A DNA stretch of 63,801 nt, counting the filler, from Hausera hauseri (taxonomy: Eukaryota), in the NCBI GenBank assembly GCA_046269625.1. It is 11 parts of 11 records of this genome, joined end to end, with 100 filler letters (N's around TTAATTAATTAA, not from the genome) between each part and the next. Parts side by side here need not be neighbours in the genome. Positions count along the whole stretch, not along the records: positions 7,535 to 14,491 come from JBJURY010048441.1; 10 more parts are not named here. One strand, given 5' to 3'. Below the pieces are notes generated by a model. That model saw only the letters and a list, made by a program, of their open reading frames with translations, was not told the DNA's origin and did not search any database. The translations under genes were made by a program, and so were the position numbers. The stretch's first letter is position 1, and each line of letters starts with the position of its first letter. Shown here piece by piece: positions 7,535 to 63,801 of the stretch.

Positions 7535-8489
7535 GTTTTGTAAAATCTCAAAATTCGTTAGCATGTTAGGGTAAAATGAAACATTGCAAAATGATGTGAC
7601 ACTCAAAATCTCTGATTGAATAACTTTATATTTGCTTGAAAAACTTTTTTTCATGTTATTAATCATATAAAAGTTTAAACTTGCATAACTCATTTTTATG
7701 AAAAGCTTTAACTCGCAACTTCACAACAAATCTAATGTAAAAGTTTGTTGACCAAGCAATGTATTATTTATTTCATTTAAAGTTTACATTCAATTCACAA
7801 AACTCCATTTCGTTTCAAAAATATATTTTCATTTTTTACATAAATTTTGATAATATTCAACAATAATCGTATAGTATCATATGAATGAAATTTGCCCAAG
7901 GATCATTTTATATACATTTATCAGGTACTCGTAAATCCATTGTTTTCCCAAAATTATGTAAATATTGATTCAATTTTTGTGAACATTCTACGAATATTAA
8001 TGATAATTCGACTAGTCTTCATATTACAACATAAATGTTAAAAATTAGTTATTTGATCAAATAGACTATGGCATCAAATTTCTATTTCATGAGTTTGTCA
8101 CTTCTGGATTACATTTCATTTTGTATTAAGCATCTGTGTATTTGAAAGCATTTGTGACATCATCCCTTGACAGCTGTGACATACTTTTTACAGTAATAAA
8201 CATACACTTTTTTCTCAACAAGTGGAGACACTAGTGACTGCTAAGGACTACTGTACTAATATGATAAATGTGAGATAAATGTGTTTACATTATAATAGTT
8301 ACAAACTAAATTCAATACGAATGTATGTGTAAAAAACCCAGCTATACATGGGTCTGCTAAAATACCCTTCCTTGCACATCATGCTTGCGATGAAGTGTTG
8401 ATTTATCATATTTAAAAAGCTGGTGTTGCCTGACCATCACCGTGAAAAGGATTGATGGACAAAATGAACATGAAAAATTAAAAAAACAA

Positions 8490-8998
8490 ATGTTGACTTA
8501 TTTGACTAGAGCACCTGCGCTGAACTATATATATTAGATCGAAATTGAAAGAGACACTTCATCGACTATAGCGTCGATTTGCTGCGCAATTCGAACAAAG
8601 AAATTACAATCAGTTCCGTGACGTCAGTATTGATATATCTGCTGTATTATTCTACGAAACTTTCTCGATTGACATTGCCATTGATCGCGTGATACGTGTT
8701 GTTCATTATACTGTGAGTATTGATTTGTCTTAAATTTCTTACATAGTTTTCATCGGCCCTTAAGGCTGATTGGTGAGCACCGTAAGAGATAAAATCTAAC
8801 GTAACTTATATAGTCACTAGAAGATTGTTAATTTCTGCACAGGACACGGCAAGCACCACAGGCATTATAAAATCTTGACACATCAACTGGGCACATTCGT
8901 TTAACGAGATCGTTAAACCGAATTTGCAATAGAATATAAACTTCAAGTGTAAATTGTTATATAGAGGGAGACGTTAAGGGCCACCCAAAATATAATAT
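8490..8998 (+). mobile_element. Probable 5' LTR (left boundary uncertain)
   Basis: Non-coding block directly upstream of the PBS; no second LTR copy in the contig to confirm boundaries. Confidence 0.35.
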
Positions 8999-8999
8999 T

Positions 9000-9017
9000 T
9001 GGCGACCCTAACAGGAC
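9000..9017 (+). promoter_or_regulatory. Primer-binding site, tRNA-Arg-like
   Basis: TGGCGACCCTAACAGGAC differs at 2 of 18 positions from TGGCGACCGTGACAGGAC, the complement of the invertebrate tRNA-Arg(TCG) 3' end used by 412/mdg1-type Gypsy elements; ~300 nt upstream of gag. Confidence 0.7.
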
Positions 9018-9315
9018 AGTTTGTGCCTATCTAGACTTTTAGAGTAAATTAAAGACATATCGGCGATCAGCACCAATACACCGAGTAATTGAAAAGCTTA
9101 AATTCAGGGATATAAGTTTTCAGATTGAAACTAAAAAGGATAAAATAAGAGACGAACATTGATAACCAAGTAAACGATAACGACAAATCACCCATACGAC
9201 AGACACGCAGAATATATATAGAGCTAATTCTGAAACTAGAGATAAAGTAGTTAACGGTAGATTTAAAATTCCTCAGCCTAAAGATAAACCTGATAGAAAT
9301 AAAATAGACAATAAT

Positions 9316-11121
9316 ATGGCAGCAGATAATCCACCAGCAGCGCAGAAGCTGGACATCTTTACGTTTGATTCTCTAAACCTGCCGGCATATGACTGTGATC
9401 CGGACGGATTAAATGACTTCCTAAGGACTTATAAGTTGCACGCAGAAGGTGCTAGTCTTCCTCCTGAAGTAATGATAAAGCTATACTTAAAGAATTTAGC
9501 CGCTGATGCTTATAGTGAGCTCACAAATGAAGAAAAGAAATCTTGGTCCTCCCTAGTAGGAGCATTGAATCGGAAACTATTGCCAACGGTAACGCCGCAA
9601 CAGAAACTCATGGCCTTTCAGAATAAAGTACAACAAAAGGGTGAATCAGTAACCCAGTTTGCATTTGCATTAAAGAATCTCGCTAATAGTTATGTAAGCA
9701 CTTTGAGAATAGCTAATGTAGCTAGAGCCAAAACAGACGCGGAACGTGAAGCCGCAGAGAAAGCAACTCCGCCAGATTTAGACGTCATGATGACGACACA
9801 GTTGATTATTGGGATTTGGTCCCGAGACTTAGTGAAACAATTGATTTTGGCTATACCTGATAATTTTGAGAGGACGCTACAATTAGCCCAAGATTTAGAA
9901 ATGGCATTAGAAAGATATACCAAACAAAATGATAAATACGAAAGTAACAATGACCGTAGTAATCGCAACAGAAATGATAACCGAGATAATAGACGATTTA
10001 ATGATAATAATAGAAGCCAAGGGTTTGATAATAGGAATCAAAATGCTTATAGAAATCAAAAATATGACAATAGAAATTCTAGTAATAATCGAAACACATA
10101 CAGCTCGTATAATAAGTCAGGTTACAACCCGGACAGGAACCAAAGTGGTTATAACCAAGGTGGTTATCGATCTAATAATAGCCGATATACGGATAGTCGG
10201 AGTAACGATAATAGAGATGATGGAGATAGTAGACAAACTCCACAAAGTCAAAATAAGAATATAACCAGAGCAAAATCGCCCGTAAACGAAGATGGTCGAC
10301 AAAGGATTGGCCGTAATGGAAATTTAATTTGTTATACATGTGGCAAAGAAGGACATATTGCTAAATCATGCCCAAATCCCAGAAGCGTTGCATTTACGGA
10401 GCCGAACAAAACAAGTATGATTAAAAACAACCTAAAAGCCATATACGGCAAAGGAGGTGAGATAAGTATGATAATTGAAATGCAAGATCTACGCAGATCT
10501 GTAAGAAATTTAGGTGAAACCACTAACCCTCACGTAACAAAAGCTAGGAAAGAGTATGAAGAAAAGTTACGACTAATGGAAGTTTATCATGGATTAACAG
10601 AACCAGAAACCGAGGACGAATATGCATTAGCACCAAACAGCATCAATATGGCACGCAAAAAGCCTTTTCCACAGGGAACAGCTCAGGCTGAGAAACCAAC
10701 GACATCTCAAAACGTAGATTTAGACACGGAAGTAGTATCCTTGACACAAGACCCAGAGGAAACTACATATGAGGTCGAAAGTGAATTTATCGGGCCTTTA
10801 GTGCTCAAAATAACTAAGAATAGAGACAGAAGCCCATCACTTAAGAGAAAGTCCACGGATCGCTCTCGATCCCCCATTAAAAAGAATTTGGTGGAAAAAG
10901 AAGATTTCTCTACTATTTTAAAAGATGACTCAATCGCGGATCTTTCTGTTATGTCTAAGGAAATACCAGAAACGCTGGAAACACCAGATGTAGTCAACGT
11001 CAACTACGAAATTAACGAAATTTGCCCACTTCCCACTAGCGAGGAAGAGACACAAGATAGCGATAATTTCGACCCAAAAAATGGAAGATCCGACGATCAT
11101 GGAAGAATGCTGATGAATTGA
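9316..11121 (+). CDS. gag: Retrotransposon Gag (capsid-like domain, N/D/R-rich linker, CCHC knuckle, acidic tail)
   Basis: QQKGESVTQFAFALKNLA (major-homology-like region), CYTCGKEGHIAKSC zinc knuckle; intact 601-aa ORF. Confidence 0.9.
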   Translation: MAADNPPAAQKLDIFTFDSLNLPAYDCDPDGLNDFLRTYKLHAEGASLPPEVMIKLYLKNLAADAYSELTNEEKKSWSSLVGALNRKLLPTVTPQQKLMAFQNKVQQKGESVTQFAFALKNLANSYVSTLRIANVARAKTDAEREAAEKATPPDLDVMMTTQLIIGIWSRDLVKQLILAIPDNFERTLQLAQDLEMALERYTKQNDKYESNNDRSNRNRNDNRDNRRFNDNNRSQGFDNRNQNAYRNQKYDNRNSSNNRNTYSSYNKSGYNPDRNQSGYNQGGYRSNNSRYTDSRSNDNRDDGDSRQTPQSQNKNITRAKSPVNEDGRQRIGRNGNLICYTCGKEGHIAKSCPNPRSVAFTEPNKTSMIKNNLKAIYGKGGEISMIIEMQDLRRSVRNLGETTNPHVTKARKEYEEKLRLMEVYHGLTEPETEDEYALAPNSINMARKKPFPQGTAQAEKPTTSQNVDLDTEVVSLTQDPEETTYEVESEFIGPLVLKITKNRDRSPSLKRKSTDRSRSPIKKNLVEKEDFSTILKDDSIADLSVMSKEIPETLETPDVVNVNYEINEICPLPTSEEETQDSDNFDPKNGRSDDHGRMLMN

Positions 11122-13925
11122 GGAAAATGAGAATTAGATCTCATGATCCAGCTGTACTCAAAAACAATTTAGAAAGGCTTAAGCAAATAAGTGAACAAGT
11201 CGATATATCCGGTAAAGAGCAACAATTTGCAGAAAAATTATATTAAAGTCTAAAATTTTGGAGCGAAGGGAAGTTCGATGAGGCAATTGAAGTAAGACAA
11301 CCGGAAGAGGTGTCGCCCGAGATGTTAGTAAAATGGAAGCACGAAATAGAATCGTGGATTAAAAGTGGAGTCTAATTTTCAGAAGGATGGAGTAAAAATG
11401 AAGATAGCATTGAGGTGAAAGTAGCTAAAGCTCAAACGTTGTTAACCACACTAGAAACTAATCGAAAATTAAAAATAGTAGCCCGCAACTTAGAATATAT
11501 AGTGGATGGAATTCGATATGCTACGACTAACCACCTTAGGGAAAAACCAGTTAACAACCGAAGCGACACGGATTTAGAAATGTTGGATATAGACCCGGTA
11601 GATATACCTCCTTTAATAGAAATGATAAAAATCGCATTCTCTGGACCTAAATTGTATAAGAACTTAGAGAATCGTATCAAATCAGAAAACAAAAAGAGGT
11701 CACAAATTAATAGTTTGAAAAACCGAATTCTATTTATGGACAACGAGGAAACCAAAACTGTAATAAAAGCCTGCATCATAGAGTCCGACGAATACAAGGA
11801 CGAATTTAACTATGTCAGTCAAATAATGAGGTTTATAAAAGGACCGGATGACGAGTTAAAAGATGCGTATAAGATGCTAGATAAGGCCATATTGGCAAAA
11901 CCAGTAATCGCTAACCAACTATCAGAATGGTCTGAATTGATAACAAGACTAAGGAAATTAGTAGAAGACCGCAGAAAAGAGTTTCCAGAAAGCGAACCCA
12001 CGATAAAAAGGCAATTAGAAGAAAGTGCACGAAACCTAGATACCATACTAGCAGAGATAGATATTCGAACACGGTTCGAAGCATTGCGACGACTGAAATT
12101 TATGAAGAAGAAGCAAGAAGAAATTATATTAGAAGAAATATACAGAATGATAGAGGAAACTAACTTTACAGAAAAGCGGAATATGACTTGTGATTTTTAC
12201 TCAAGATTAAGAAATATTCGATGGGAAGGAATCCAATATTTAATAACCAAACCTGTAGACGAAATTTCAGTACAAGATATTGATACTCTAGACATATTTT
12301 CTGATCATAGAGTATTCATAGAAGATGCATTGAGATTCATACATGAACCCCGCAAATGGATGTCCGGGACGGATCAAAAATTCCATACTGAGTTGATAAA
12401 AATTAAAAATGACCAAAGCCTCACTTCCGACGAAGCTAAATTCTTAAAGAAACTACTTAATGCCATAGATCCTGATTCGAAAATCATCAACGAGATGTAC
12501 AAACTAGCTTATTTACTAGTAGAAATGGCAGAAATTAGCGATGAAGAGATAAGGCAACTACTACCTAAACTACGACAAACCGAAGAAACATGTATAAAAA
12601 CTAAACAAAGAGAAGTAAGGTTAACCGAATTAATGAATGAGTTCCAGGAATACCGGAACAAATATGCCTTTACCGAGTCAGAAATCGAGCACAAATACGA
12701 GTTTGTACAAAGATGGCAAAAGGATATAATCATCGAGTTAACAGATTATCATCAGAAAGGACTTATTCCCACCGATGAGTTTGGTGAATTATTGAAACTA
12801 ATTCGACATGCCTGTGGAAACGGCGTAGGTTTCCGTACCACACAGATGAAAGAAATACAACCGAAATTGAAAGAAATTAGAGAAAATGTACGGAGAACGA
12901 GTATAGCACCAATAGATTATGGACCGCCAGAAGTTGATAATGACCCCGAATGGGATGCGTACTTAGATGCAATAAACGTAGAAAATCCAGTAACTCCAAT
13001 ACAACTAAACGAAGTGGAACCATGCCCACAAAGCAGGAGATTCAATGTGGAGATGCTTCTGGACTCAGCGCTAGCTGAAAAGGATTTAATTGAATTAGTT
13101 AACGTAAATATTACTGAAACTAAATTAAGACAACTTATCCCGACTCTAACTAGATTATCTTGCGAAAATACAGTTTACAGTACCTTACCAAAACTTTTAA
13201 TAAAAAGTTATGCGAGAATATTAAGGGCTAAACCTGAAGTAATGATGAAAGTAAAAATATCATCCGAATGGATGGATGAGAAAGAATGTGAACTAACTAC
13301 ATATTTATATGTAAAGGACGTAAGAGAGTGGCTAATAAATAATGGTGGTACGAACGAGTTAAATTACAGATTCTACTTTAGAGGTAGAATACTGGATGAA
13401 TTAGAACAATTAATCGATGTTGGGATTATACCCGACGAGACAAATAGAATAGTGGCAATAATAACTAACGAGCAGACTAAAGAAGAAGCCACCCGTAAAG
13501 CAAAAACAGAACAGTGCGTAGGACAAATCATGGGAGTCCGAGACGCCGCCATGTATTTCGAGTACTTGCAAACCGATGAGGACAAAGAACAATATGACAC
13601 GAACTTAGTGCCATTGACTGTATCACCAATGACCATCCAAAAACAGAAACGGCCCGTACGTAGGCCCAAGAAAATCCGAGAAGATGTTGATTATAATGGA
13701 GAATTAATCAGAGAATTGAGGCAGATGTCAATTCCTACTTTTAGCACACATAATGAAAAACTAAGCGAATTGATGAGGAATCTGATACGAATAGTAAACT
13801 CTTCGAGCCTTCGAAGATATATATTAGACTATAAAGAAAAGGCGATATTTAACGCAGATAGGACAATGAGAAGTGCACGGTTCAAGTTATCAAAAAGCAA
13901 CCTGACAGGCGAAGCAGTAGTTTAG
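11073..13925 (+). CDS. Large unknown charged/helical ORF in the -1 frame of gag, containing a ubiquitin-like domain (~13242-13463); not Pol
   Basis: The frame of ORF 11415-13925 extends back to 11073 with only two TAA (11244, 11373). No D(T/S)G, YxDD, RNase H or integrase motif seen. Ubl-like segment: MKVKISSEWMDEKECELTTYLYVKDVREWLINNGGTNELNYRFYFRGRILDELEQLIDVGIIPDETNRIVAI. Confidence 0.7.
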
Positions 13926-13931
13926 AAAATC

Positions 13932-14491
13932 ATGGTGGAAAATTCAATAGAAGAATTGAGGAAGGTATTGCTCTATTTAGCAATCAAGACAAATCCCAGC
14001 CGAGAAAATGAATTTAATCGGGCTATTAGCTTGGCACGAAAAGCAGCAAGGAAATTACCCTGTGAGGTAAATTGGATTAAAATATTTGATAAAGAAGAAG
14101 ATAAGAGAGCCAGTGGTAGTATACTAGAAGACGCGTTACGGAATCGGACGGCGACAGACAATAATAACCGGAAAAACGAATCCAACTGGTTAATCAGCCT
14201 ACTTACGATAATGATGCTGATGAAACAGATAGGTGCCGTCACTGTCTACGATTGCGATAAATTTAAGCTCGGACAAAAATACTCATTAATGAATCTAGAA
14301 GCGTGCGAAGACGCCAGACCCCATAAATTAGAAACAAAGGAAAAAAGTTATATCCTCTACCAACAACAAGAATTAATATCCTTGGACGGAATGGAGTGCA
14401 TGCTTAAGCGGTCTCGTAGCATTTTTCATTGTGGATTAATGTATGGACATTCTTCAATAATCAAACCAACGACCCCTCTGATTCCAATGAA
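13932..14491 (+). CDS. env: Chuvirus-like (class III fusion) envelope glycoprotein N-terminus, truncated by contig end
   Basis: Signal-peptide-like WLISLLTIMMLMKQIGA, then VYDC....YSL.NLEAC...ILYQQ...EC.LKRSRSIFHCG.YGHSS, matching the YDC...SL...C...Q...C......CG..H pattern of chuvirus glycoproteins; same frame as the upstream ORF, separated by one TAG. Confidence 0.75.
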
Positions 14492-15219
14492 NNNNNNNNN
14501 NNNNNNNNNNNNNNNNNNNNNNNNNNNNNNNNNNNTTAATTAATTAANNNNNNNNNNNNNNNNNNNNNNNNNNNNNNNNNNNNNNNNNNNNAAATTTGAA
14601 TTGTACGTTATAACAACGTTGCAAACAATAATTTTATGTCCTCTAATCGCACTCTGTTATCTAATCTTATATTTTTGTCTTAAATCATGAACACTATCAA
14701 ATACTGATAAATTATATTTGCCTGTCAAATCTTAAATTGGCTAATCTCATGTTCATTAATAATAATTCGCCAAATCTCATAATAACTAGTCTTTGAATGG
14801 CTTTTCTGACGCTATGTAGGCTTCCTGCGTACGTTTATGTGTTTTTCTATTTTGATCCTTCATCCCCTGCAAATTCTTTGTTTTAATGGGATTCTACCAC
14901 TGTTTTCGCTTCATTCCTTAACTGCTCACTTTCTTCAGGTGTTAATTTAAAGAAATGTTTATGCTAACATATGCCAACGTCAAGCATGTAAATCAACACG
15001 TTTATTGCGTCGCAGGAGATATAAAAATTCCTTTCTTTCAGTAAAAGTTACAGACGTCGAAAGATGGTCAGGACGTTACAATCAATACATGTCTTCTTGT
15101 GTGTCTCCTCCATGGAAGTCTTCGTTCTCGCTGATGACTGCGTTTACCAGGTAACACCGTTTTATACTCATTACTCGCAGACTAATTTGTAGATTTAAGC
15201 CAGTCATTTTGATGGATGG

Positions 15220-17590: not shown

Positions 17591-18937
17591 TTGTCCCTTC
17601 TGTTTCTGGATAATGAAATCAGAGTTATCACAGCAGGTAGCTTACCTCCAAAATTAACAGGAATTTACCTGAATGAAAATCCTCTGACTACAATCGAAGA
17701 CTCGGCATTTGGTGAATCTTATTCAACGCTGACACAAGTGTCTTTATCAAACGCTAACTTCACAAAATTCCCTGATGCATTTCGACGTCTGACAAGACTC
17801 CATTCATTATCCATCTCTGATAGCCATATACAAGATTGGAACGACGACGCTATGAAGATTATTGGTCAAACGGTAGAGGAACTTATCATTAGCAACGTCG
17901 GGTTAACAAAATGGCCGACATGGGTCGAGAATGTCTCTCAACTGCCAGATCTGACTTTAACTACAGGTTATATATCAGACATACCAGATAACGTTCTCGA
18001 TAATGTGGCCGATAGACTGTTAGCCCTTTACCTTCAGACGAACAGACTAAAAGCTATTCCTAAGGCCTTTTCAAAGTTAACATCTCTGGTGACTTTGCAT
18101 CTTTACGAGAATAAAATCACGGACGTGGCAGGGCTTCCTCAATCCAGCCAGTTCTCTTCCTTGATGCTGAATAGCAACCAGATATCAAACGGCACTCACC
18201 TCCAACAAGTTCTCTTCCTTGATGCTGAATAACAACCAGATATCAAACAACACTCACCTCAGCGACACGATACGACCTTTTGGAAACTCCATGATTGAAC
18301 TGGGTATTAATGACAATCTGTTGACCACAATTCCAAATTTGACTTTTCTTAGACACGTGAGCAGTCTTGATTTATCTCATAATAAAATATCAGATCCACG
18401 GTCAGGATCTGTGTCGCCAGTTCTATCTTCCGTTGATCTGAGCCACAACTTGCTTCCATCAATTCCTCAATTTATGTTACCATTACAGTTTATGTATGAA
18501 TTATATCTGCCATAAAATTCTATAAGACAGATCCGAGGAACAGACTTCCCACCATTTGTAGTGGTAGCAGATCTCGGGTATAATCTTATAACAGAGTTAA
18601 CTGACGAGAGTTTTCCACAGAATTCTCAACTAAAAGTCTTACACTTAAACGACAACCCAGTTACTAACATTTCCAATCTGGCATTCAAATATCTGGGTTT
18701 CCTGACAGAATTGTACCTACAAAACACCAAACTGACTCGCCTACCTATGGCTCTTGGTTACATCAATAACCTGTCCATTTTCAACATAGATGACAACAGA
18801 CAACTGATTTGTACATGCCTGGAGAAAAGTTTACAAACACAATGGACATATCCATGTTGCTTAGCAACGTTGTAGGAAACTGTGGCCACGTTAGTGTTTA
18901 TACATTTTTCTCCCAATTAAGTCAAAATTGTCCTTAA
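17591..18937 (+). pseudogene. Extracellular-type leucine-rich-repeat protein with LRRCT cap, disrupted
   Basis: Many LxxLxLxxNxI repeats; C-terminal LICTC...GNCGHVSVYTFFSQLSQNCP*. A 58-bp duplication (18151/18209) shifts the frame, TAA at 18513-18515, another shift near 18860. Confidence 0.88.
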
Positions 18938-32741: not shown

Positions 32742-33772
32742 ATGCCTTACGTACTTACATCATAGATATACGCTGTTATGGTTTTTATTTTAGGTTACTG
32801 TAATTGTAATGCTAGGTCTGCTGCAGTAGAATATGAACGGCGTTACCCTAATAGAAAGATTCCAGATTCCAAAACAATTTGTGGAACTTTCCGTACTCTT
32901 CGGGAAACAAGATCACTACCGAGTATTCGAAACAATTATGAACGTACTGTCCAACATGACGATGATATTGTTATTAATGCTGTTCATCGTAGTCCAGGCG
33001 TAAGTACACGACGTCTTTCTAGGCGGATAGGAGTTTCGCAGTGGACGGTGTGGAGGTCACTGAATCCAAATAAATTTTATCTATTTCATAAACAAAATAT
33101 TCAACATTTACGGCCAGGGGATGGTCCGCTTGGCTTGGAGTTTTGCAACTTTTTGAATATTAATCAACAACCATACAAGCGTATTTTGTTTACGGATGAG
33201 GCACAATTCACTCAAGATGGTGTCAACATCTTGCACAATGAACACTCATGGGCAGAAGAGAAGTCTCATGAGGTAGTGGAACAGAACTTTCAACGCCGAT
33301 TTAACGTCAATGTTTGGTGTGGCCTTTTGAACAATCGACTGATTGGACCGTTCATATTACTTTGACGCATAAATGATGAGTTCTGTTTGCACTTCCTTCA
33401 AGAAGAGTTGCCACAGCTGCTTGTGGATGTTCCTTTGTATCTCAGACGAGATTTGTACTTCCAGAATGATGGAGCACCTCCCCACTTTTCACGTTCCGTT
33501 TCCGCTCACTTAAATAATGAATTTCCTGGACAATGGATTGGTCGTGGAGGGCCTCACTCTTGGCCACCAAGATCACCAGATCTATCTCCATTGGATTATT
33601 GCGTTTAAGGATGGATGAAAGATATTATCTACAAGACAAAAGTAAAATCTCGTGAAGAATTAATTGCCGCATTATGGAAATCATGGGAAATTAAGAAACG
33701 CAACAAAAGCCGTACACAAACGTACTTGAAAATGTATTGATAATGACGGCTACATTTTTGAACATCTATTAT
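32742..33772 (+). mobile_element. Tc1/mariner transposase relic, DD41D (rosa-type)
   Basis: N-terminal HTH (NARSAAVEY..RYPNR), ILFTDEAQF, VNVWCG, FQNDGAPPH...WPPRSPDLSPLD with 41 residues between the second and third D; internal stops. Confidence 0.9.
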
Positions 33773-44047: not shown

Positions 44048-45064
44048 CTATTGCACGGTCGTTTCGTTCAACTTTAAATCCACATTTAATTGATGTATGG
44101 CATCAGAAAGTTTATCCAAATTTTCACCCGAAAGCCGTTTAACACGATAGCGGTACTTGGGTACACATAGAGATACGGGATCATTCAATGAGATCAGTAC
44201 GGGCGTTTGCAGAAAATACATTTCATACTTGAGAAGAATTCGTTTCGGTAAAAATGTCTGTGTTTGACACGATAATTTTGATTTTTGTATACGTATTCCA
44301 ATCATTGCATTTTGCCTTTTTAACGTCGGTTTTGATGATTTCTGAGCAAGTTCCTTTTTCGTTTCCAGACAATCGCCCTGCAAACAATTGCCATTAGAAG
44401 GTTTTTCTAATTGTTGGACAAGTTCTGGTTTCGCTTCCAGCAGTTTGATATTAGAATTATCCTTTTTGTAGCCAAACAACCACGACCAATCTGAACTTTC
44501 ATCATTGGCATCAATGAGTAGAATCGTTTTGTCGACGTCTTCCATGGCAGTAATGTCTGAATAAGCATGGGAATGGTATTTATAGTTTGTTGTTGTGCAG
44601 AGTACATTATTTGGATTCACTAAAACATGTACGTAGTTTTTTATTTGATTAATAATCAATTCATAGTCCACTATCCGAATACTGAGTACAGCAATTTTTT
44701 CGCTGCTAACCACATTGACACAAAGTGGGCGAAACGATGTCAGTGTCAATGCAGGAAACAGTTCGGGTTCATATGTACATTCAGTGGCCATTGCTAATTT
44801 GAACAGATTGATTGTTTGGTAGTCTAACTGAGTCGTTACCGTTATTGATTGAATTTGGTCAATAACAATTCCGAATGGTAATAGTTTACCAGCTGTTATT
44901 GGTTTGCGACAACCCATAATACGACACTTTCTCGATTAAAATATAATTCACGTGAAATCCGGTGGACATTTGAGGACATACTGCCTCGGCTTCCATTGAT
45001 TAAAAGGTAATGTGTTAATGTCACACTCGGTAACATGTCCGCGATAGTTGATATTAGCTAACAT
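44048..45064 (-). pseudogene. TATA-binding-protein-like gene (two TBP repeats, ~44630-45064) in frame with an unknown C-terminal extension
   Basis: MLANINYRG...IIF*SRKCRIMGC (repeat 1; two stops near 44940-44950) and IQSITVTTQL...INLFKLA....YEPELFPALTL...PLCVNVVSSEKIAVL (repeat 2, cf. TBP YEPELFPGL). Confidence 0.8.
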
Positions 45065-45160
45065 TATGGAAACAGTGTTTATACTATAGCTATTTATATG
45101 CGCGTAACACGATTATAAACAGATCATGTGAGGAAAGGTTGTATTATTATGATTATTTAG

Positions 45161-45770
45161 ATGAAACTGCAGAATGATGCCATTTTCCAGATTGTAGGCC
45201 CCAGTGGAAGTGGCAAAACACACTTTGTGTGTAAACTATTGCCGAACTACCAGAACATGTTCCATTCACCGCGGTACAGTCACATATACTGGCATCAAGG
45301 TGCTGGTGATGATGGTTAGTCCGGTTTGACACAACGGGAATTTTGCAAACTAAAATCCATAACGGTAATTGATGAGTTTGATAAAAACTGGTCAAAGAGA
45401 TTACGCAATGGTGACGTTATTTTCATCGATGATTTATTTCAAGAGACAACGAAACAATCGGACTTCAACAACCTGTTCACAAAGATGGCACGACACCGTG
45501 GTGTAAGGGTTATTTTCATTACGCAAAACATGTTCCATCAGGGCGGATAGCATGGAACAAAAAATCTAAAAGTACACTATTTGATGTTGCTCAAAAATCC
45601 CCGTGATCAGACTAATATTGATTGTTTCACGACAAGCATTTCCTCACAACTGAGCCCGTTTGATATATGCATATCATGATGCTACGACCGAGCCACACGA
45701 ATACTTGTTCATCGACTTTACAAAACAGTGTCCAGATGACATGCGTGTACAAACAGACACTTTCAATTAG
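45161..45770 (+). pseudogene. FtsK/A32-like packaging ATPase
   Basis: IVGPSGSGKT (Walker A), VIFIDDL (Walker B), LFTKMARHRG, FITQNMF, KNPRD, YLFIDF. Confidence 0.92.
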
Positions 45771-45994
45771 AAAGGTGTGTGTCTATAAACAAATTCAAAA
45801 ATCGACAACATGATAGTGATAAAATGAAGAATTTCCGAACAACAATTGATGAACGTAAACCTACTAAGCGGGTGTCCGGCAAGAATCGTGTATCAAAACG
45901 AACCGCTGCAGTCAAGCGATTAATCAATTCTGTGCTTCAAACAACAGCAGCTGCAACTAGACGCAAACTACCGTCACAGTGGCAACGGTTGTAA

Positions 45995-46350
45995 ACAACT
46001 ACGTCTCACCAGCATCAAAACGTCCACAAAAAAGCGATTCAAACGAGGTCAGCTGTACTTTATTGCTTTGCTCAAGGCACCTACGAGACATAAGCGAAAC
46101 ACGCTTCGATCATTTCTACAATTTGTGGTAGACGATTTAATGGAAATTTTGTACAATATCGTTGTGGGTCACGTTGATATTGGTAGCGGGAACCGTAATT
46201 TACTAAAATATCGAAAACGACTCATTGGCCTTGCCATCGCTCGTAGTAAACGACTGAAACAAGAGGTCATGTATCACCAAGACGAGGATTCCTTGGTGCA
46301 ATTATACGGTTGTCACGTCATTACTGGATGGACTCGTTGGTTATGCAGCA
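45995..46350 (+). pseudogene. Basic Polinton core (pVII-like) protein
   Basis: LMEILYNIVVGHVDI....LLKYRKRL..LA....KRLKQE..YHQ, matching the E...N...G.V..L..YK..L..LA pattern seen next to Maverick ATPases. Confidence 0.6.
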
Positions 46351-46519
46351 TAGTATAAACAATGATGGTAAATATATGATGATTCAGCGATATGGGTGCA
46401 TCGTTTTCATCATTTTGCACCACTTTACCGAATCTTTCATTTACGTTTCATTCTAATTTCTGTAATGTTAACAAAACGACATCATCGTCGACAACGATGG
46501 GCGGCGTGTGGTTCGATCC

Positions 46520-46752
46520 GTGTCATCCCGTCGGGTATACTGGCGTAAACTGTTAAAGACTGTCAAACAGACTCGGCAACAGACCGAAAGTTGGCTCGGG
46601 AAACAGTTGGCATAAAGCCTAAACAAACCGATAAGAAGGCGGTTTCCAACTCGTGCATACCGTGTTGCCGGTGTCAATAACGTATGGCAAATGGATCTGA
46701 TGGAAATGATTCCGTACGCCAGCATCAACGATGGATATCGGTACGTGCTGAC
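46520..46752 (+). CDS. Polinton integrase N-terminus (truncated by contig end)
   Basis: ESWLGKQLAYSLNKPIRRRFPTRAYRVAGVNNVWQMDLMEMIPYASINDGYRYVL. Confidence 0.88.
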
Positions 46753-46852: not shown

Positions 46853-49800
46853 CTCATAAAACATCTGCAGCCTAGAATAAAAGAGCAAATACAAAAGGAT
46901 TTAAAGAAAATAAATGAAGGAAAAATTCCCAAAGAATTAAAATTGTCAAAACTGATAAATACGTATACTGAAAAGAATTGTTTAAATAGGCTAAATGAAG
47001 ATGACAAGGATAAGCTTATTAAAGAAATTTATAAGATTCGAGGAAAAGATCTGGTTACCTCTCAGAAGGAATCAAGATATTAAATAGATTACGAAAGACA
47101 AGAAAAATTAAACAGGCGAATTGATGACATAATTGAAGGAGTTATTGGTCGAAAATTCGAACCACCTCCTATCATAATTAGTAGTGATAGTAGTGGAACA
47201 CAAACCCTTTGTGGAAAAGATGAAACCAAGCTCATCAAAGAAAATGAAAAAGTCGGTATTAAGAAATTCATCGAAGAAGGCCAGAATCTACTTATGACTT
47301 ATAATAATGTATCTACCAAAAATGAGTATTTAGACAGATTATGTCTCCTACTAAAAACCAAGAAAATGAAGAGAGAATATAAAGAACAGTTAGAAGAAAT
47401 TCGAGCTGAAATGGAACTATTACTAGACCGATCATATGTATCCGAAATAAAAATTGAATTGAAGAAAATCAGTAATATCCTGGATCAAAATTTAAGTGAA
47501 AAACAGAAGATTTTCTGGACTGAACAAAAGGAAAATTTGGAAATGGCAATGCAATCACCAATTACTTTAGAAAAGAGAGAAGTAATAAATGAAATACGCG
47601 TCAAATCAAGTCAAGTAATGATAACTTATTTATTTAAGATTCTGAAAAAAAATCATTATGTAAAAGATTACTTCAAAATGAAGTCATAAAATAATCTGAG
47701 CATCTCGCAGGAAGAGTTAACACCTTTATCAATAAGTTGAAAGTTCTAGGCATAAAAAGTACCGAAGAAAATGAAAAGGAATTAACAGGGATTCTCAATG
47801 AAAGTAACGATTTGCACCAGTGTTTAATTGATGATATTGATCTTGATGAAGAACCACAACAATTATTAGAAATATTAATCTCAATTTGTAGACATCATAT
47901 AGATGATAAAATAACTGATGATGGATATCCTCCTATGATACCTCCTTTAACCATTGATGAACTTACTGACGGAATAAAAACGACTAAAGAATTCGCCAAA
48001 CGGTTAGAAGGAATAAAAAGATCGCCAGATTTCGATAAGTTTACGGAAAAAGCAAGAAAAGCAGAAGAAGATTTTCAACTTGATTTCTCAGAAGTGATTA
48101 ATAAAGAAAATACTGTAATTGCAAGTGACGAAGAAAGTAGTTTGAAAAAACGTATGGAAAAATTAAAACCACCTAGATACCAGGAATTATTAACAAAAGA
48201 AGAGAGAAGAAAGCAAAAAAACAAATAAAATATCCAGATATGATTGACAGCGAGATAAATAAAACTACTGAGAATATACAGCCAATAAAAAAACAGAAAA
48301 AGCCTGCTACGAAGAGAATAAGACTGTACAAACCAGAAAAGCCGGAAAAGAAATATTACGAATGCCAGCAAAGATGATTTTAAGGACACAACTGAGTACG
48401 AGACACAAGACAGTTTTGGACAGGATATGAACATTAATGATTTTCTTGAATATGACTTAGATACAATCCATCTTGATAGATTTAGAGACGAAGAAATAAA
48501 TGAAAATGAGAGAATAAAATCAAGACCAACTCTGATTGAAAGAATGGCCGCTCCACAAGAATTTCCAGAAGATCTAGATGACTTGCTAATGTCTTACCTC
48601 AATAAAAAGAATAATATTTATGAAATTGAAGAAACAGCAGAAGAATTAGCTAAAAAACCAGCTGATAAATGGAGGTATAATAATACGCCTCGAACCTTAC
48701 TAAAATTATTAGGAAAATACTATTTAAATGAAAAGAAATTTATGAATCAAAAAATAACAGTGCGACCTTGGATTGACGATAGTTTCTTCCCTAATCTAGA
48801 AATGAGTATTGATAGTCGAGTTGTTGGTCTTGAACAGGCAATCAAATCTCAAACTCAGAAACAAATGAAACATCTTAGAATTATATATTGCGATAGAATT
48901 TTGGATCCAGAAGAACCAACAACTGAACTAACTCCAGAAGAAGATAAACGGAAAATTATTAAAGTCAAAAATATAGCACAAGAAGAAACCATTATGGGAA
49001 TAAAAGATCAACAAGGGTAGTTGAAACATCTCCATGAGACACTAATCGAAAATTCGTCACAGACATAGCAGCAGATGCTTACAATGAATTGACAGATGAA
49101 GGAAAAGATAAATGGAATAACGTACAGACCGCCTTTATTGATAAGTTCTATCCTACCTTATCCCCACACCAACAATTGATTAAGCTACAAAACAGATATA
49201 AGCAATATGATGAATCTGTTACACAATATCCCTATGCTTTACGACAAATTGTCTCTCAATACGTTAAAGCTGTCCGACTAGATACAATAAAAAGAAAAAA
49301 TAAATTTTATGAAAAAGAATTAAATACCGATATATTATTGCTCACTCAATTTTTGAATGGATTAAGTCCTGAATTGAAATATGAAGTAGAGGTAAAATAT
49401 CCTACTGATTTTGTAGATGCTTTAAAATCGGCCCAAATGATAGAATCGTTTGCTCCGCCAAAGCGACAGAAAATCGCTAACCGATTTTTTGAAAATGATC
49501 AGAGAAATTTTGACTCACAGAAATGATAATCGCAGAAATGATCAAAGAAACCGAAGAGATAATGAAATTGATTTTGACCGAGATAGCTATAATCGAGGAT
49601 ATAATAAATCAGATTCAAGAAACTTTACGGACAATCGAAATCAGATGCCAATAAAGCCAGAAAATGTTACTCAATACGAAAAAAGTAATGCTCCTAGATT
49701 TTAGCACAGAGTTTTATTTAGTCCAGAAACAAAATATCGAAGAGATGGTAGACAGGATTTGAATAAAACCGGTCGAACGCCTACATGTAATCAATGTAAC

Positions 49801-51194
49801 AAAACTGGACATTATGGCAATTCACGTTAAACTCCAGCTCACGAGTTGCCTGGACCAAATGAGAAGAAAAGAAGTGCCATAATGAACAAAGTTAAAACTT
49901 ACAATACTCCAGAAGAATTTTTAAAACGAATTTCTGAGTTAACTCCAGATAAAAGAAATATTACAGCTAACGTTCTCAGAAAAATGCATGCTGATGTTGA
50001 TCGAATTCTTCGAAAATATAATATTGATACAAGTTATAGTTTGCCTCAGTGCCAAGGCATTTTTGATGATTTAAATAAAAATGAACCTGTAGCGGAACCA
50101 GCTCAGGCAAAACGTATTACTGAATCAGTTATCATTGAAGCTCGAACCGAAGCTAAGAATAGACTTTTACTTGGTGAAGAACATTCTGAAGTAGATGAAT
50201 TTATGCTTGAATGTTTCCCGGTTGATCCTCAAGTCGCTGCATGTGAACGAGCTCGAAAAGAATCCGATAAAGAAAAGCCGACTTTACCTGATCAAAAAGA
50301 CAAATTTGCTCGATATAAAATACCAAAAAGAAAACCTGAAGAAGTTTCTAAATCACCAATCACAAAATGAGATGTTGAATATGAACAAATTCACAGAAGT
50401 TATAAAATGCCAAATGACGCAGTTCCATCTACATCCAAATCAGAAGCGCACCCACAAAGTCCAGAAGTTCAGATTATTGAAAGAGATACTATTTATGAAG
50501 TTGCCGATAAAGAGCTCATAAAACATTTTCAGCCTAGAATAAAAGAGCAAATACAAAAGGATTTAAAGAAAATAAATGAAGGAAAAATTCCAAAGAATTA
50601 AAATCATCTAAGCTGATAAATACTTATACTGAAAAGAATTGTTCAAGTAGACTAAATGAAGATGACACAGATAAACTTATTAAAGAAATTTATAAGGTTC
50701 GAGAAGAAGATCTGGTTACCTCTCAGAAGGAATCAAGATATTTAATGGATTATAAAAAGCAAGAAAAATTAAAGAAGCAAATTGATGACATAATTGAAGG
50801 AGTTCTTGGTCGAAAATTCGAACCACCTCCGATTATAATCAGTAGTGATAGTAGTGGAAGACAAACTCCTTGTGGAAGAGATGAAATCAAACCCATCAAA
50901 GAAAATGACGAAGTCAATATTATAAAATTCATTGAAGAAGGCCAGAATCTACTTATGACTGATAGTAATGTATCTACCAAAAACGACTACTTAGACAGAT
51001 TATGTCTCCTACTACTAAAAAACAAGAAAATAAAAAGAGAATCTAAGGAACAGTTAGAAAAAAGTCGAGCTGACATGGAACTATTACTAGACCGATCATA
51101 TGTATCCGAAACAAAAATTGAATTGAAGAAAATCAATAATATTCTGGATCAAAATTTAAGTGAAAAAGAAAAGTTATTTTGGACTGATCAAAAG
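46853..51194 (+). mobile_element. Decayed relative of the contig-2 element (Gag, degenerate knuckle, unknown ORF, Ubl), tandemly duplicated with ~3662-bp period
   Basis: 46853-47530 is a diverged copy of 50515-51194; Gag at 49064-49830 and Ubl at ~48742-48966. Confidence 0.8.
49064..49830 (+). pseudogene. gag: Gag fragment homologous to 9316-11121
   Basis: AADAYNELTDEGKDKW...PTLSPHQQL..LQN...ESVTQY.YAL vs AADAYSELTNEEKKSW...PTVTPQQKL..FQN...ESVTQFAFAL; DGRQ precedes the knuckle in both; CNQCNKTGHYGNSR has its last Cys replaced by Arg. Confidence 0.85.
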
Positions 51195-58509: not shown

Positions 58510-60340
58510 ATGCTGTTTTTTAAACACAAGGTCAATTTCCTAGGACATGTTAGTAGCTCCTCCGGACATTCACCTCAGCCGGACCGCATCACTCAGCTCA
58601 AAAACATACAACTGCCACGTACGTTAACAGAGATGCGTTCTTTCCTCGGAACCTTGCACTTTATTCATAAGTACGTTCCGCACTGTTCCACTTTAATCGC
58701 TCCATTTGCATTACTAAACTCTGGCAAGAAGAAACAGCCTACTCAATGGACCGCAAATTTAGTCAATGCTTTAGATGGTCTCAAAGACAATTTGAAAACT
58801 GTGGATATCCTGCTTATCCATACTCCCATGCAGAACTTTTCTTAACCACCGACGCATCCACAAAAGCTGCAGATGCTGTCCTACATCAAGTTAAAAAAGG
58901 ATCCCATAAACCATTGGAATTCTTTTCTTGAAAATTCACAGCACAAGAGCAGAGATATTTTACCTTTGACCGAGAGTTGCTTGCAATGGTTCTTGCCGTA
59001 AAACGCTTCAAACATTTCCTAACTGCACGAACTTTTACCATACAAACTGACCACAAGCCCTTGCTTTAAATTCTCACCATGAAATAGCCTTCTCCACGTA
59101 AGGGGAGGCAAATGTCGTATTTGTCAACATTTAATTTTGTAAGTAAACACCTAAACGGGGTCGGCAATTTAGTAGCTGCCTTTTTGTCCCGATCGGTCAG
59201 CTCGATTGATTTTACACCAATCTTTCCTCAATCGAAACTTCAGCAAAACCAGCCACCTCTTGACATGCTTAAATCTTTTAAATTTTGCAAAACCATCGAC
59301 GGTGCGGCCTTTGACACCTCCAAACCTAATAATCCTAAAGTCATCCTTTCTGAATCGCTTCAAAAAGAAGCATTCAACAGCATCCATTCGTTGCATCATC
59401 CCGGGGCCAAGGCCATTTTTCGACTCTTACAACGCCAAGTAGTATGGCCGTCGATGCGCTCTGACGTGCAGGCATGGGTTAGGCAGTGTGTGGCATGCCA
59501 AAAATACAAAGTTACTAAGCACTTAAAGCTACCACTATATCATTTTCCCTGCACGTCTCGTTTTGAATCTGTTCACATTGACCTTGTATGCCCACTACCC
59601 TTAGACAACGGCCATCAGTTCATACTCACAATAATGGACCGTTCCTCGCGATGGCCAGAGGCTGTCCCGCTTCGGAGCACTAACACAGAAACAATTGCAG
59701 ACGTTTTCATCCGCACTTGGATCAGCAGGTTTGAATCACCTCGCTACATCATTTAGGACCAAAGCCCACAGTTCGAATCCAACTTGTTTAAAGCTATTGT
59801 CAATCGATTGAAAATTAACCAAATTTACAGGTCATCATATTATCCTCAATCGAATGGCCTTCTCGAACGCTTTCACCAAACGATGAAAACGTTTCTCAAA
59901 ATCCTTGCTGAATTAAATCGCAGTTGGACTACACTCCTTCCGTACGTTCTGCTTGGCTGGTGGAACACACCATCTACTTCGACAGGCTGCTCTCATGCAG
60001 AAGCATTATTTGGTACTTCTATCAGACCATTATTCGAGCTGGCTGAGCTGGACAATATTCTTACAGACGAAACCAAACAAGCGGCCCAAAGACACTTCGT
60101 TGAGATCAGCAAAGACTCATTTTGCAGACTGTTACACGGAAATAAACCCAACATACCTGATGATTTATATACTGCTAACTTCGTATGGCTAAAAAATCAG
60201 ACGCCGTGTGATTTTCGACCCCAGTATGTTGGCCTCTACAAAGTAATTCGTTTACACTCTCACAATATCATCATTTTCAAGGACGACAAAGAAGTAACAG
60301 TCCACATCAACAATGCTAAGCCGGATTTTTTCATTGACGA
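58510..60340 (+). mobile_element. pol: Ty3/Gypsy pol remnant (RT C-terminus, RNase H, integrase)
   Basis: VNFLGH, MRSFLG, LTTDAS, TFDRELLA, TDHKPL, H..HHPG...C..CQ, VHIDLV.PLP, RWPEA, PQSNGLLERFH; several stops and frameshifts. Confidence 0.95.
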
Positions 60341-61100
60341 TACGTCTCCCATCGAAACCACTTCTCCACCAACATCTTTACACGACGCGCAGCAATCAAC
60401 AATTCACCTTCCATCTTTGCTCAATTTTCTAACTCACTTTCCCCTAAGTTTTCTCCCCAGACTTCTACTTCAATTTTTTTAGTTCAGCCTATTTTTTCCC
60501 ACCCGATTTTGCACCTTCAAGCCTTTCACACCCCCTTCATCCCCTGGTGACAACTTGCTTTCTCCTCTTACAAGACCTCCTCCGCCAAACACCATTTCGA
60601 TTTCACCAATATTTCCATCTTTTTGCTCTCTTCCGTTTTGTCCCTCTTCGCAGTCTTTTCTCTCCCTCTCGCTTTCTTTCTCCTTCCACACCTTCCTCAT
60701 TTTCGGCGATCGCTCCCTCCCTCTCTCCTTATACATCGTCTTTTACTCCTTTCGTCACCGTTTCGCAAATTTCTTCTCTTTTTACTCCTATCCATATCTC
60801 TCTTTCTCTCTCTACTACTACTTTTGTTTCATCCTCTATTTCTACTCTATCACCTAATACAATTTCAATTTCTACGCAACTTTTCGTCTCTCCTCCTTTA
60901 TCCGCCACTACACCTCTTTTTAGTCCTTTGTCTTCCAACACTCCCTTGAACACCTTCAACCGTCTGCCTCCAAAAACCTCTCTTCCTCCTTCACCTTCTA
61001 TTTCTCTTTATTCTGAACCATCTTCGCACGACACAACACTCACAAAACAATCCCACAATTTTTCCCCAAATTCAAACTCTGCAAGCAAACACACAGAATA
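60340..61100 (+). repeat. C/T-rich low-complexity tail of the Gypsy element
   Basis: Pyrimidine-rich tract; followed by a purine run GCAGGGAAAAA (~61138), a possible PPT. Confidence 0.6.
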
Positions 61101-62559: not shown

Positions 62560-62934
62560 TTCTATTTTTATTCGTAAAAAATAAGATCACACGTTTGAAT
62601 TCGAATTCTTGTTGAGCCATATTTAGCGTAAAAATTCCTTCTTGATTTAATCTTACAATTATCAATCGAAATTTGCTTATATTTGGAAATTTATTGTTTC
62701 AGTTTTTATAAGCGTAAACGGTGTAATCATATTTCAATTGTTGCTACGAAGTTGCATACTTGTCATATTTATTGTGTATCCAATAGTTGGTTGATTACAA
62801 GGTAGAAGAAACATTGCAAGTCGCAATAAATTCGTTCGGACATGGTGTACACAGATGCCATCTTGTTTCCGTGCAGAAACGAACAAACCAACATCGGAGT
62901 TCAACTTGTCCATTTATAAGACCAAATACAGAGC

Positions 62935-63801
62935 ACGAAATGTACTGCAAAAACAATTACTATGTAAGACCAGAATTTCCCAAGGAGGACTATATTGAAT
63001 TCAAGGAGTTCGAGAAGAAGATCAAGGTCCCAATAGTTACCTATTGCGACTTTGAAGTTATTCTTCGACCAATACACAGATGCACTCCCAGTCCTCAACA
63101 CAGCAGCACAATGGCATACCAATATCATGAACTCTCATCATATTGCATGTATGCCAAAGTACTGGACAGTGAACCATTTCTATTCAGGAGTCTAGGCGCA
63201 GCATTACATTTCATGAAATAACTGGAATACATGACTCATAGGATTGGAGATATGCTCTAGCAGTATAAGGATACCATAAACATGTCGAAAATGCAAGAAG
63301 AAGAATGGCACAAGGCAACAACATGTTACTTATGCTCCAAATCATTCACCAAATAGAATGATAAAGTCAAGGATCATTGCCATTTTACAGGCACATATCG
63401 CGGCGCAACATGCAACAACTGCAATCTGCGTTGCAAAACATGTACATGTGCCTGTATTGTTCCACAATCTCAGTGGGTATGATTCCCACTTTACTGTTCG
63501 GGAACTGGGCAACATTGATGGGAACATTGATGTCATTCCAAACAGTGAGGAAAAATATATCACCTTCACTAAGCATGTGGGCCGAATTAGACTTCGATTC
63601 GTAGACAGCTTCCAATTCACGAGCTCGTCACTGGATAGTTTAGTGAACAACCTCCCTGCAGAAAAACTCAGGTAGACGAAGCGGTTCTTCCCCACTGCAT
63701 TTTACATCGTCAAGAGGAAAGGCGTGTTTCCTTATAATTAAATAACATCATGGGAAACACTGGATGAGACCTCATTGCCGGACAAGAAAGAGTTTTACAG
63801 T
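62935..63801 (+). pseudogene. polB: Second Polinton pPolB fragment (exonuclease region)
   Basis: VPIVTYCDFE, CYLCSKSF, VKDHCHFTGTYRGATCNNCNL, VLFHNLSGYDSH, IPNSEEKYITF, RFVDSFQF..SSLDSLVNNL, RKGVFPY; contains stops. Confidence 0.93.

Follow-up and report, generated by a model that had tools for sequence, protein, structure and literature searches.

What might a ubiquitin-like domain (UBL) do inside a retrotransposon, between Gag and the envelope protein (Env), when it lacks the C-terminal GG of ubiquitin? This question is raised by a locus of Hausera hauseri (GenBank assembly GCA_046269625.1) within the window, the whole 63,801-nucleotide stretch, filler included, that was analysed. The window joins 11 short contigs through 10 N-linkers, and the domain lies on the contig at positions 7535-14491 (JBJURY010048441.1, 6957 bases). 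Our best explanation, to which we assign a probability of roughly 40%, is that the integral, GG-less UBL of this decayed Burro-like retrotransposon, which has Gag on one side and a gB-type Env on the other, acts as a non-cleaved module for docking on the host. The contig carries the following features.

9000..9011, + strand: primer-binding-site (PBS)-like 12-mer, tRNA-Arg-like, upstream of gag, recognised in the sequence
9316..11121, + strand: Gag-like ORF1, with a capsid region, an N/R-rich linker, one CCHC knuckle (~10330-10377) and an acidic tail
11067..11375, + strand: broken Gag/ORF2 junction, with a frame change and two in-frame stops
11376..13925, + strand: ORF2, the accessory region that separates Gag from Env (849 codons), with no Pfam family at cut-off
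13074..13226, + strand: three helices, predicted in the model, directly before the UBL and conserved with it
13242..13469, + strand: integral UBL (predicted beta-grasp) with no C-terminal GG
13926..14491, + strand: first part of a fusion glycoprotein of gB type (mononega/chuvirus-like), in the ORF2 frame after TAG 13923 and cut by the contig end

Both flanks of the accessory region resemble retroelement genes. ORF1 matches zf-CCHC (E 1.7e-6) and, below threshold, Retrotrans_gag (E 0.0028) in Pfam, and it aligns with the Gag of a metagenomic relative, P0002, at a pairwise E of 4e-14. The env start matches the Pfam family Monjiviricetes_fusion above its cut-off (E 7.5e-9) and includes a hydrophobic, signal-like stretch near 14190-14240 in the hydropathy profile. 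Upstream of gag, comparison by eye finds a single mismatch in 12 bases between the reverse complement of the 12-mer and the PBS of two rotifer errantiviruses, both typed Arg_ACG in the supplement of PMC13524379. No second LTR was found on contig 7535-14491, and the LTR is therefore undelimited.

Is this copy able to make a polyprotein that includes the UBL? TGA 11119 closes ORF1, and stops in the ORF2 frame occur at 11064, 11244 and 11373. A programmed frameshift was considered at 11073, where CCCAAAA is one of six slippery-type heptamers in the ORF1 frame, but this candidate was rejected because no unusually stable hairpin lies behind the heptamer (z -0.9 and -0.7) and two further stops follow downstream. 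Decay is thus the simpler reading of the junction. Given the stops and the frame change, a Gag-UBL product is unlikely to arise from this copy, and translation from Gag through to the UBL is probably not to be expected. The sequence-only reading had described the domain as embedded in a retroelement polyprotein. That description would apply to P0002, and it agrees with the order published for Burro elements, whereas in this copy the Gag and UBL frames are split.

The same reading had supposed that the element has no protease of its own. Indeed, no D[TS]G motif occurs in ORF1, ORF2, the env start or P0002. However, this absence is uninformative and the premise cannot be used, because the contig covers only about 189 codons of env before it ends at 14491 (the gap begins at 14492), which leaves pol off the contig, and it is behind env that gag-env-pol elements encode their protease. 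Such an order, with PR-RT-RH-IN following env, is given for Burro in the sections of PMC6431247 that we consulted and for flatworm gag-env-pol elements in those of PMC13524379.

The case for a UBL begins with modest single-sequence resemblance. The peptide originally compared with ubiquitin maps to 13311-13427 (in the + strand translation of 13242-13463, inside the ORF2 frame) and shares 9 of 39 residues with the ubiquitin fragment quoted beside it. None of four cuts of the UBL segment matches a ubiquitin-clan Pfam family, and neither of its two matches at E<=10 in a search of PDB sequences is a UBL. Once relatives of the element are included, the resemblance exceeds chance.

The first relative, P0002, is the sole match for the last 330 residues of ORF2 (E 1e-4) in a whole-library phmmer search of 1.84 billion representatives, a search that was blind to the ubiquitin hypothesis. 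This protein of 997 amino acids, from a metagenome contig of 4.3 kb, carries Gag, a CCHC knuckle and a UBL in one 997-codon frame. Its UBL matches PF00240 below the curated cut-off (E 0.0046), at the same place as the aligned UBL of ORF2, and its C-terminus (residues ~830-985) has a sub-threshold match to Bcl-2 in Pfam (E 0.019). The resulting order of Gag, knuckle, UBL and Bcl-2-like region is the one printed for Burro in PMC6431247, as far as its layout is described there. No Env is seen in P0002, which ends at residue 997. When P0002 is aligned with ORF2 plus env, a single significant alignment results, covering ORF2 residues 571-698 at 28% identity (pairwise E 4e-10).

The second relative lies on another contig of the window.

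48571..48990, + strand: second helix-plus-UBL segment, in a diverged, decayed relative (PF00240 E 0.0035-0.03, sub-threshold)

The Gag of this second copy (49038-49523) is 33% identical to ORF1. Its UBL is weakly similar to that of the first copy (z 2.3, with 72 of 2000 shuffles reaching the score), and a single-sequence phmmer search with the segment gave no UBL match. The contig at 46853-51194 is a tandem with a period of ~3.66 kb: 46853-47530 is ~90% identical to 50515-51194, and about 15 codons past the UBL the sequence jumps back to mid-capsid Gag near 49020-49038. This arrangement reflects either an internal tandem duplication or a misassembly.

Other searches added no relatives. Word-index protein searches with ORF2 residues 560-849 and with the env start retained none of 3408 and none of 481 candidates, respectively, and the one hit among 7993 scored sequences for the three-sequence profile was P0002 itself. 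Scans of viral contigs with env, the three-sequence profile and P0002 yielded no locus. A metagenome scan with Gag led to a bacterial TPR-type gene neighbourhood (L001), which was dismissed as spurious.

The remaining contigs of the window hold a varied set of genes and fragments. A tRNA-Met(CAT) gene is found on the neighbouring contig (7260-7331), a leucine-rich-repeat frame at 17591-18232 (LRR_8 E 2.4e-15), and a helix-turn-helix frame at 32766-33365 (DUF4817 E 4.6e-4) that is probably a DNA-transposon fragment. At 44048-46752, a TBP-like fragment (PF00352 E 9.7e-5) stands beside P-loop ATPase-like and integrase-like fragments, a gene set that we take to resemble Polinton/Maverick. Fragments at 62787-63675 resemble, by eye and by motif, the protein-primed DNA polymerase region of Polintons. 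Decayed gypsy-type RT/RNase H/integrase fragments at 58510-60482, on yet another contig (Integrase_H2C2 E 8.4e-17), show no link to the UBL element.

The first copy, P0002 and the second window copy make up the three-sequence alignment used below, and they are the only three sequences found. A profile of the two window copies has 16 matches at E<=10 in the PDB, all of UBL type (best E 0.012). With P0002 included, the best PDB match is the UBL of ubiquilin-2 (E 6.3e-5), ubiquilin-2 and -1 occupy three of the top four rows, and 58 of the best 60 of 118 matches are UBL-type, the other two being VPS28; this profile is biased, because its third sequence was chosen for its PF00240 match. The three-sequence profile recognises UBLs; the segment alone has no match, the relatives match PF00240 only below threshold, and none of the three copies reaches the curated Pfam cut-off for the ubiquitin family.

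Structure prediction points the same way as the profile. AlphaFold2, run on the three-sequence alignment, gave a best model with pLDDT 68.4 and pTM 0.64 (pLDDT range of the five models, 45-68). Its UBL part is predicted to contain E58-64, E71-76, H81-92, E99-103, H114-117 and E126-131, in beta-grasp order, preceded by helices at residues 2-10, 16-28 and 38-52. All 14 Foldseek matches in the PDB at E<=1e-3 are ubiquitin, SUMO, ISG15 or UBL chains, and single-domain targets overlay the model at an rmsd of ~2 A over 73-82 residues, with TM scores of 0.71-0.85 for most. Identity to ubiquitin structures is ~15% in these Foldseek comparisons. Six matches in the viral Foldseek library reach E<=1e-3, with UBL proteins of giant viruses ranking first; pestiviral ubiquitin inserts are also among the structural matches. 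VIA-align, run against 48,161 chains, gave a best Z of 9.3 (rmsd 2.5, 79 residues aligned) and 37 chains at Z>=8, with rows mainly covering model residues 54-137. An initial model from two sequences (pLDDT 44) had no Foldseek match at E<=1e-3 and was set aside as a hint only; of its 48 listed Foldseek rows, titles or chain sizes marked 46 as UBL-type.

Considering the profile, the model and the P0002 match together, we regard the beta-grasp fold and the integral nature of the domain as very probable. The original observation of a UBL, weak by single-sequence evidence, is thus confirmed, and the AlphaFold comparison that had been proposed as a check does predict the fold. Regardless, Foldseek and VIA scores leave shuttle UBLs, ubiquitin, SUMO, ISG15 and kindlin F0 unseparated, and the predicted fold does not tell from which UBL subfamily the domain derives.

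What has been conserved is not the UBL alone. Alignment with P0002 gives 22 identities over 75 residues for the UBL (z 13.6) and 15 over 57 for the three helices before it (z 11.1), and in both cases 0 of 2000 shuffles reach the score. By contrast, the flanks, 565 residues before (z 0.7) and 70 after (z 0.8), do not align. A comparison of the UBL with its flanks had been proposed from the outset, and for this one pair it suggests that the conserved unit is the helices plus the UBL, ~135 residues in all. The downstream interval 13680-14108 was also considered as a BCL-2-like region. It is at most a weak candidate: the interval has no Pfam match, none of its three PDB matches is BCL-2, and its similarity to P0002 is not significant (z 0.7 for the region, 2.4 for its C-terminal half).

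This pattern of conservation bears on whether the UBL does anything for the element. A captured host UBL exon without function would be in keeping with the decay of both window copies. We consider such a passenger quite improbable, since three elements whose flanks can no longer be aligned, and Burro as described, all retain the UBL in frame and in a matching relative position.

Which functions might the domain then retain? Roles of individual ubiquitin positions are well established, including the hydrophobic patch centred on Ile44, which in proteasome-shuttle UBLs is conserved together with Gly47, and Lys48 as the usual chain acceptor. Ubiquitin numbering was taken from the VIA register, which places model residues 59-133 on ubiquitin 1-73, and residues are listed here in the order first copy/P0002/second window copy. 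Core positions 23, 26, 30, 43, 45, 50 and 61 are hydrophobic in all three copies. A C-terminal GG is present in none: positions 72-76 read TNEQT, VNTSQ and KNIAQ, with no LRGG-type tail, and positions 74-76 of the first copy are E-Q-T. The single GG of ORF2 sits at the end of the central helix. Thus the description of an integral UBL without GG stands, and ubiquitin-style conjugation or cutting is impossible for this domain.

The lack of GG speaks strongly against the processing-site idea, in which the UBL would be a cleavage signal for host deubiquitinating enzymes that replaces a missing protease, as in cytopathic pestiviruses. There, according to the account in PMC8310069, it is ubiquitin C-terminal hydrolases of the host that cleave the inserted ubiquitin. 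The presence of these inserts among the structural matches reflects the shared fold only, and the element's own protease should be encoded behind env, in sequence that the contig does not reach. A cleavage signal is therefore hardly credible here.

A degradative role also meets difficulty at a single position. Non-cleavable ubiquitin fusions are degraded, and a released UBL could in this way send its own accessory product or precursor to fast proteasomal turnover and so limit its dose. The UBLs of FAT10 and midnolin, which act at the proteasome, are among the tied structural matches (Z 8.6 and 8.5). However, the usual chain-acceptor lysine is missing in all three copies (position 48, R/Q/R), and we judge a degron to be improbable.

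Could the UBL instead recruit ESCRT? In the portion of PMC2958808 that we consulted, ubiquitin without its GG causes VPS4-dependent budding when joined to Gag, with K48 and K63 dispensable. By analogy, a Gag-joined UBL could mimic mono-ubiquitin as a built-in late domain through which Env-bearing particles bud. The element does have env, and no P[TS]AP, PPxY or YPx(1-3)L motif occurs in ORF1, ORF2, the env start or P0002, an absence that has no control set. The upstream helices add a faint resemblance to the N-terminus of the ESCRT-I subunit VPS28 (E 0.096 and 0.12, two of the best 60 of 118 profile rows), but these matches are not significant and Pfam returns no VPS28 match for the helices. 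Moreover, the budding assay needed L8 and I44 (PMC2958808), whereas this UBL has Tyr at position 44 and no Leu in the model loop that spans position 8 (residues 66-68, E-W-M; the register at position 8 is uncertain). In this copy, ~950 codons also separate the UBL from the knuckle upstream. The late-domain reading accordingly receives a low probability. A more specific form, in which a VPS28-like three-helix element and a GG-less ubiquitin mimic act together as a hard-wired ESCRT recruiter in place of peptide late domains, is a longer shot still; if true, the engineered Gag-ubiquitin fusions that cause budding would have a counterpart in nature.

The putative receptor face of the UBL is hydrophobic but variable. 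Position 44 is Y/V/I, 47 is G/G/D, 68 is V/K/I and 70 is I/I/K, with the register of the second window copy doubtful at 67-72; positions 44 and 70 are thus hydrophobic in the first copy and P0002. A surface patch that varies while the core stays hydrophobic in three of three copies would also suit an internal scaffold, in which the helices and UBL bind the element's own Gag or nucleocapsid, RNA or polyprotein neighbours and have no host ubiquitin-pathway partner. The UBL travels with a helical partner, binding of the viral N protein by coronavirus nsp3 Ubl1 is in print (PMC9938351, PMC8769549, each consulted in part), and the UBL of the first copy is acidic (14 D/E versus 9 K/R). The other two UBLs are approximately neutral (13 K/R versus 11 D/E, and 13 versus 13), and the neighbouring cargo described for Burro in PMC6431247 belongs to host ubiquitin and apoptosis machinery. 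On balance, an internal scaffold appears unlikely, though to a lesser degree than the readings above.

We therefore return to docking on the host. That the UBL works as an adaptor on receptors of the host ubiquitin system is a tentative proposal, short of even odds. It is favoured by the best sequence matches, which are integral shuttle-factor UBLs; by the selective conservation of helices and UBL beside unalignable flanks; by the Gag-knuckle-UBL frame, Bcl-2 match and Burro-like order of P0002; and by the hydrophobic residues at 44 and 70 in two copies, together with UBL-proteasome complexes (2nbw, 9bui) among the VIA matches. It also fits what the literature at hand describes for Burro, whose cargo includes MATH, BIR/RING, BCL-2-like and ankyrin modules, several of them ubiquitination or apoptosis modules (PMC6431247), and whose member Burro1 is reported, as cited second-hand in PMC13465017, to protect planarian stem cells in an anti-apoptotic manner via its RING/BIR region. 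Docking is disfavoured by a putative receptor-binding face that varies among the copies, by fold scores that are unspecific, and by the finding that ORF2 has no Pfam match to MATH, BIR, RING or ankyrin. The recruitment of proteasome or ESCRT machinery that had been suggested from the sequence is a plausible candidate role.

An intact element may produce Gag, UBL, Env and Pol as one polyprotein. The element's own protease, encoded downstream of env, would cut this product at sites other than the UBL and release an accessory piece in which UBL and helices are still connected. The UBL could then be used like those of host shuttle factors of the ubiquilin/Rad23/BAG6 type, binding proteasome receptors or UBA, E3 or DUB partners. 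Docking of this kind might steer the turnover of host or element proteins, along with the MATH, BIR/RING and BCL-2-like modules of Burro elements.

That giant gypsy elements carry a UBL between Gag and Env has already been published, in one sentence of PMC6431247, where HHpred is said to detect a Ubi2/SUMO-like motif (PF11976) in planarian Burro/GYPSM1. The sequence-only reading overlooked this precedent and offered pestiviruses instead. Our literature search found no other paper on a UBL in LTR/gypsy retrotransposon polyproteins, and the primary Burro papers may describe more. New here are the structural support, the finding that all three diverged copies lack GG, and the helical partner conserved beside the UBL. 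At present these extend a known architecture only modestly, and the copy that shows them is dead. Nevertheless, the compact unit of three helices and UBL can be expressed and tested alone. If its UBL binds host ubiquitin receptors, the retrotransposon would possess an accessory factor with influence on protein turnover. Should it recruit ESCRT, the budding of these Env-bearing elements in the absence of known late motifs would be explained.

Among known systems, the cytopathic pestivirus inserts share with this element a ubiquitin fold inside a viral polyprotein, but they are cellular ubiquitin cut by host hydrolases (PMC8310069, as far as consulted), whereas the UBL here is diverged and tailless. 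Coronavirus nsp3 Ubl1 is, by description, a diverged, uncleaved UBL inside a polyprotein; it belongs to an unrelated virus group and binds the viral N protein. The integral (type II) UBLs of ubiquilin, Rad23, Dsk2 and BAG6 share the beta-grasp fold and the lack of a GG tail and include the best sequence matches. In contrast to them, the UBL here is internal rather than N-terminal, follows three helices, has no detected UBA and has a variable Ile44 patch.

Similarly, errantiviruses of flatworms, nematodes and bryozoans combine a GAG-ENV-POL order with an HSV/gB-type Env (PMC13524379, consulted in part), and here too a gB-type env directly follows the gag region. The env start resembles, by eye and unscored, the ectodomain row of Schmidtea errantivirus_1 in the supplement of that paper, whose main text makes no mention of ubiquitin. 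Two of its Schmidtea entries span ~14.8 kb, which would be close to the 4,873-codon frame of Burro.

Burro/GYPSM1, the giant Ty3/gypsy elements of planarians, differ from this element in several respects in the description of PMC6431247. They have two or three knuckles rather than one, and they carry MATH, BIR and ankyrin modules that have no match in this ORF2, as well as a BCL-2-like motif between UBL and Env for which the match here is not clear. This copy is broken and ends before pol, on a contig too short to show the RT clade, paired LTRs and total size above 25 kb that go with Burro membership. Their motif is labelled PF11976, whereas the best sequence matches here are ubiquilin-type/PF00240, and the three-helix partner is absent from that description; the UBLs are compared by description, not by sequence. 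We therefore call the element Burro-like in layout and do not assign it as a Burro member. In both, Retrotrans_gag and CCHC precede a long accessory region with a ubiquitin- or SUMO-like motif, and an Env related to mononegavirus fusion proteins comes next, which in Burro lies in frame between gag and pol and here continues the ORF2 frame after one TAG up to the contig end.
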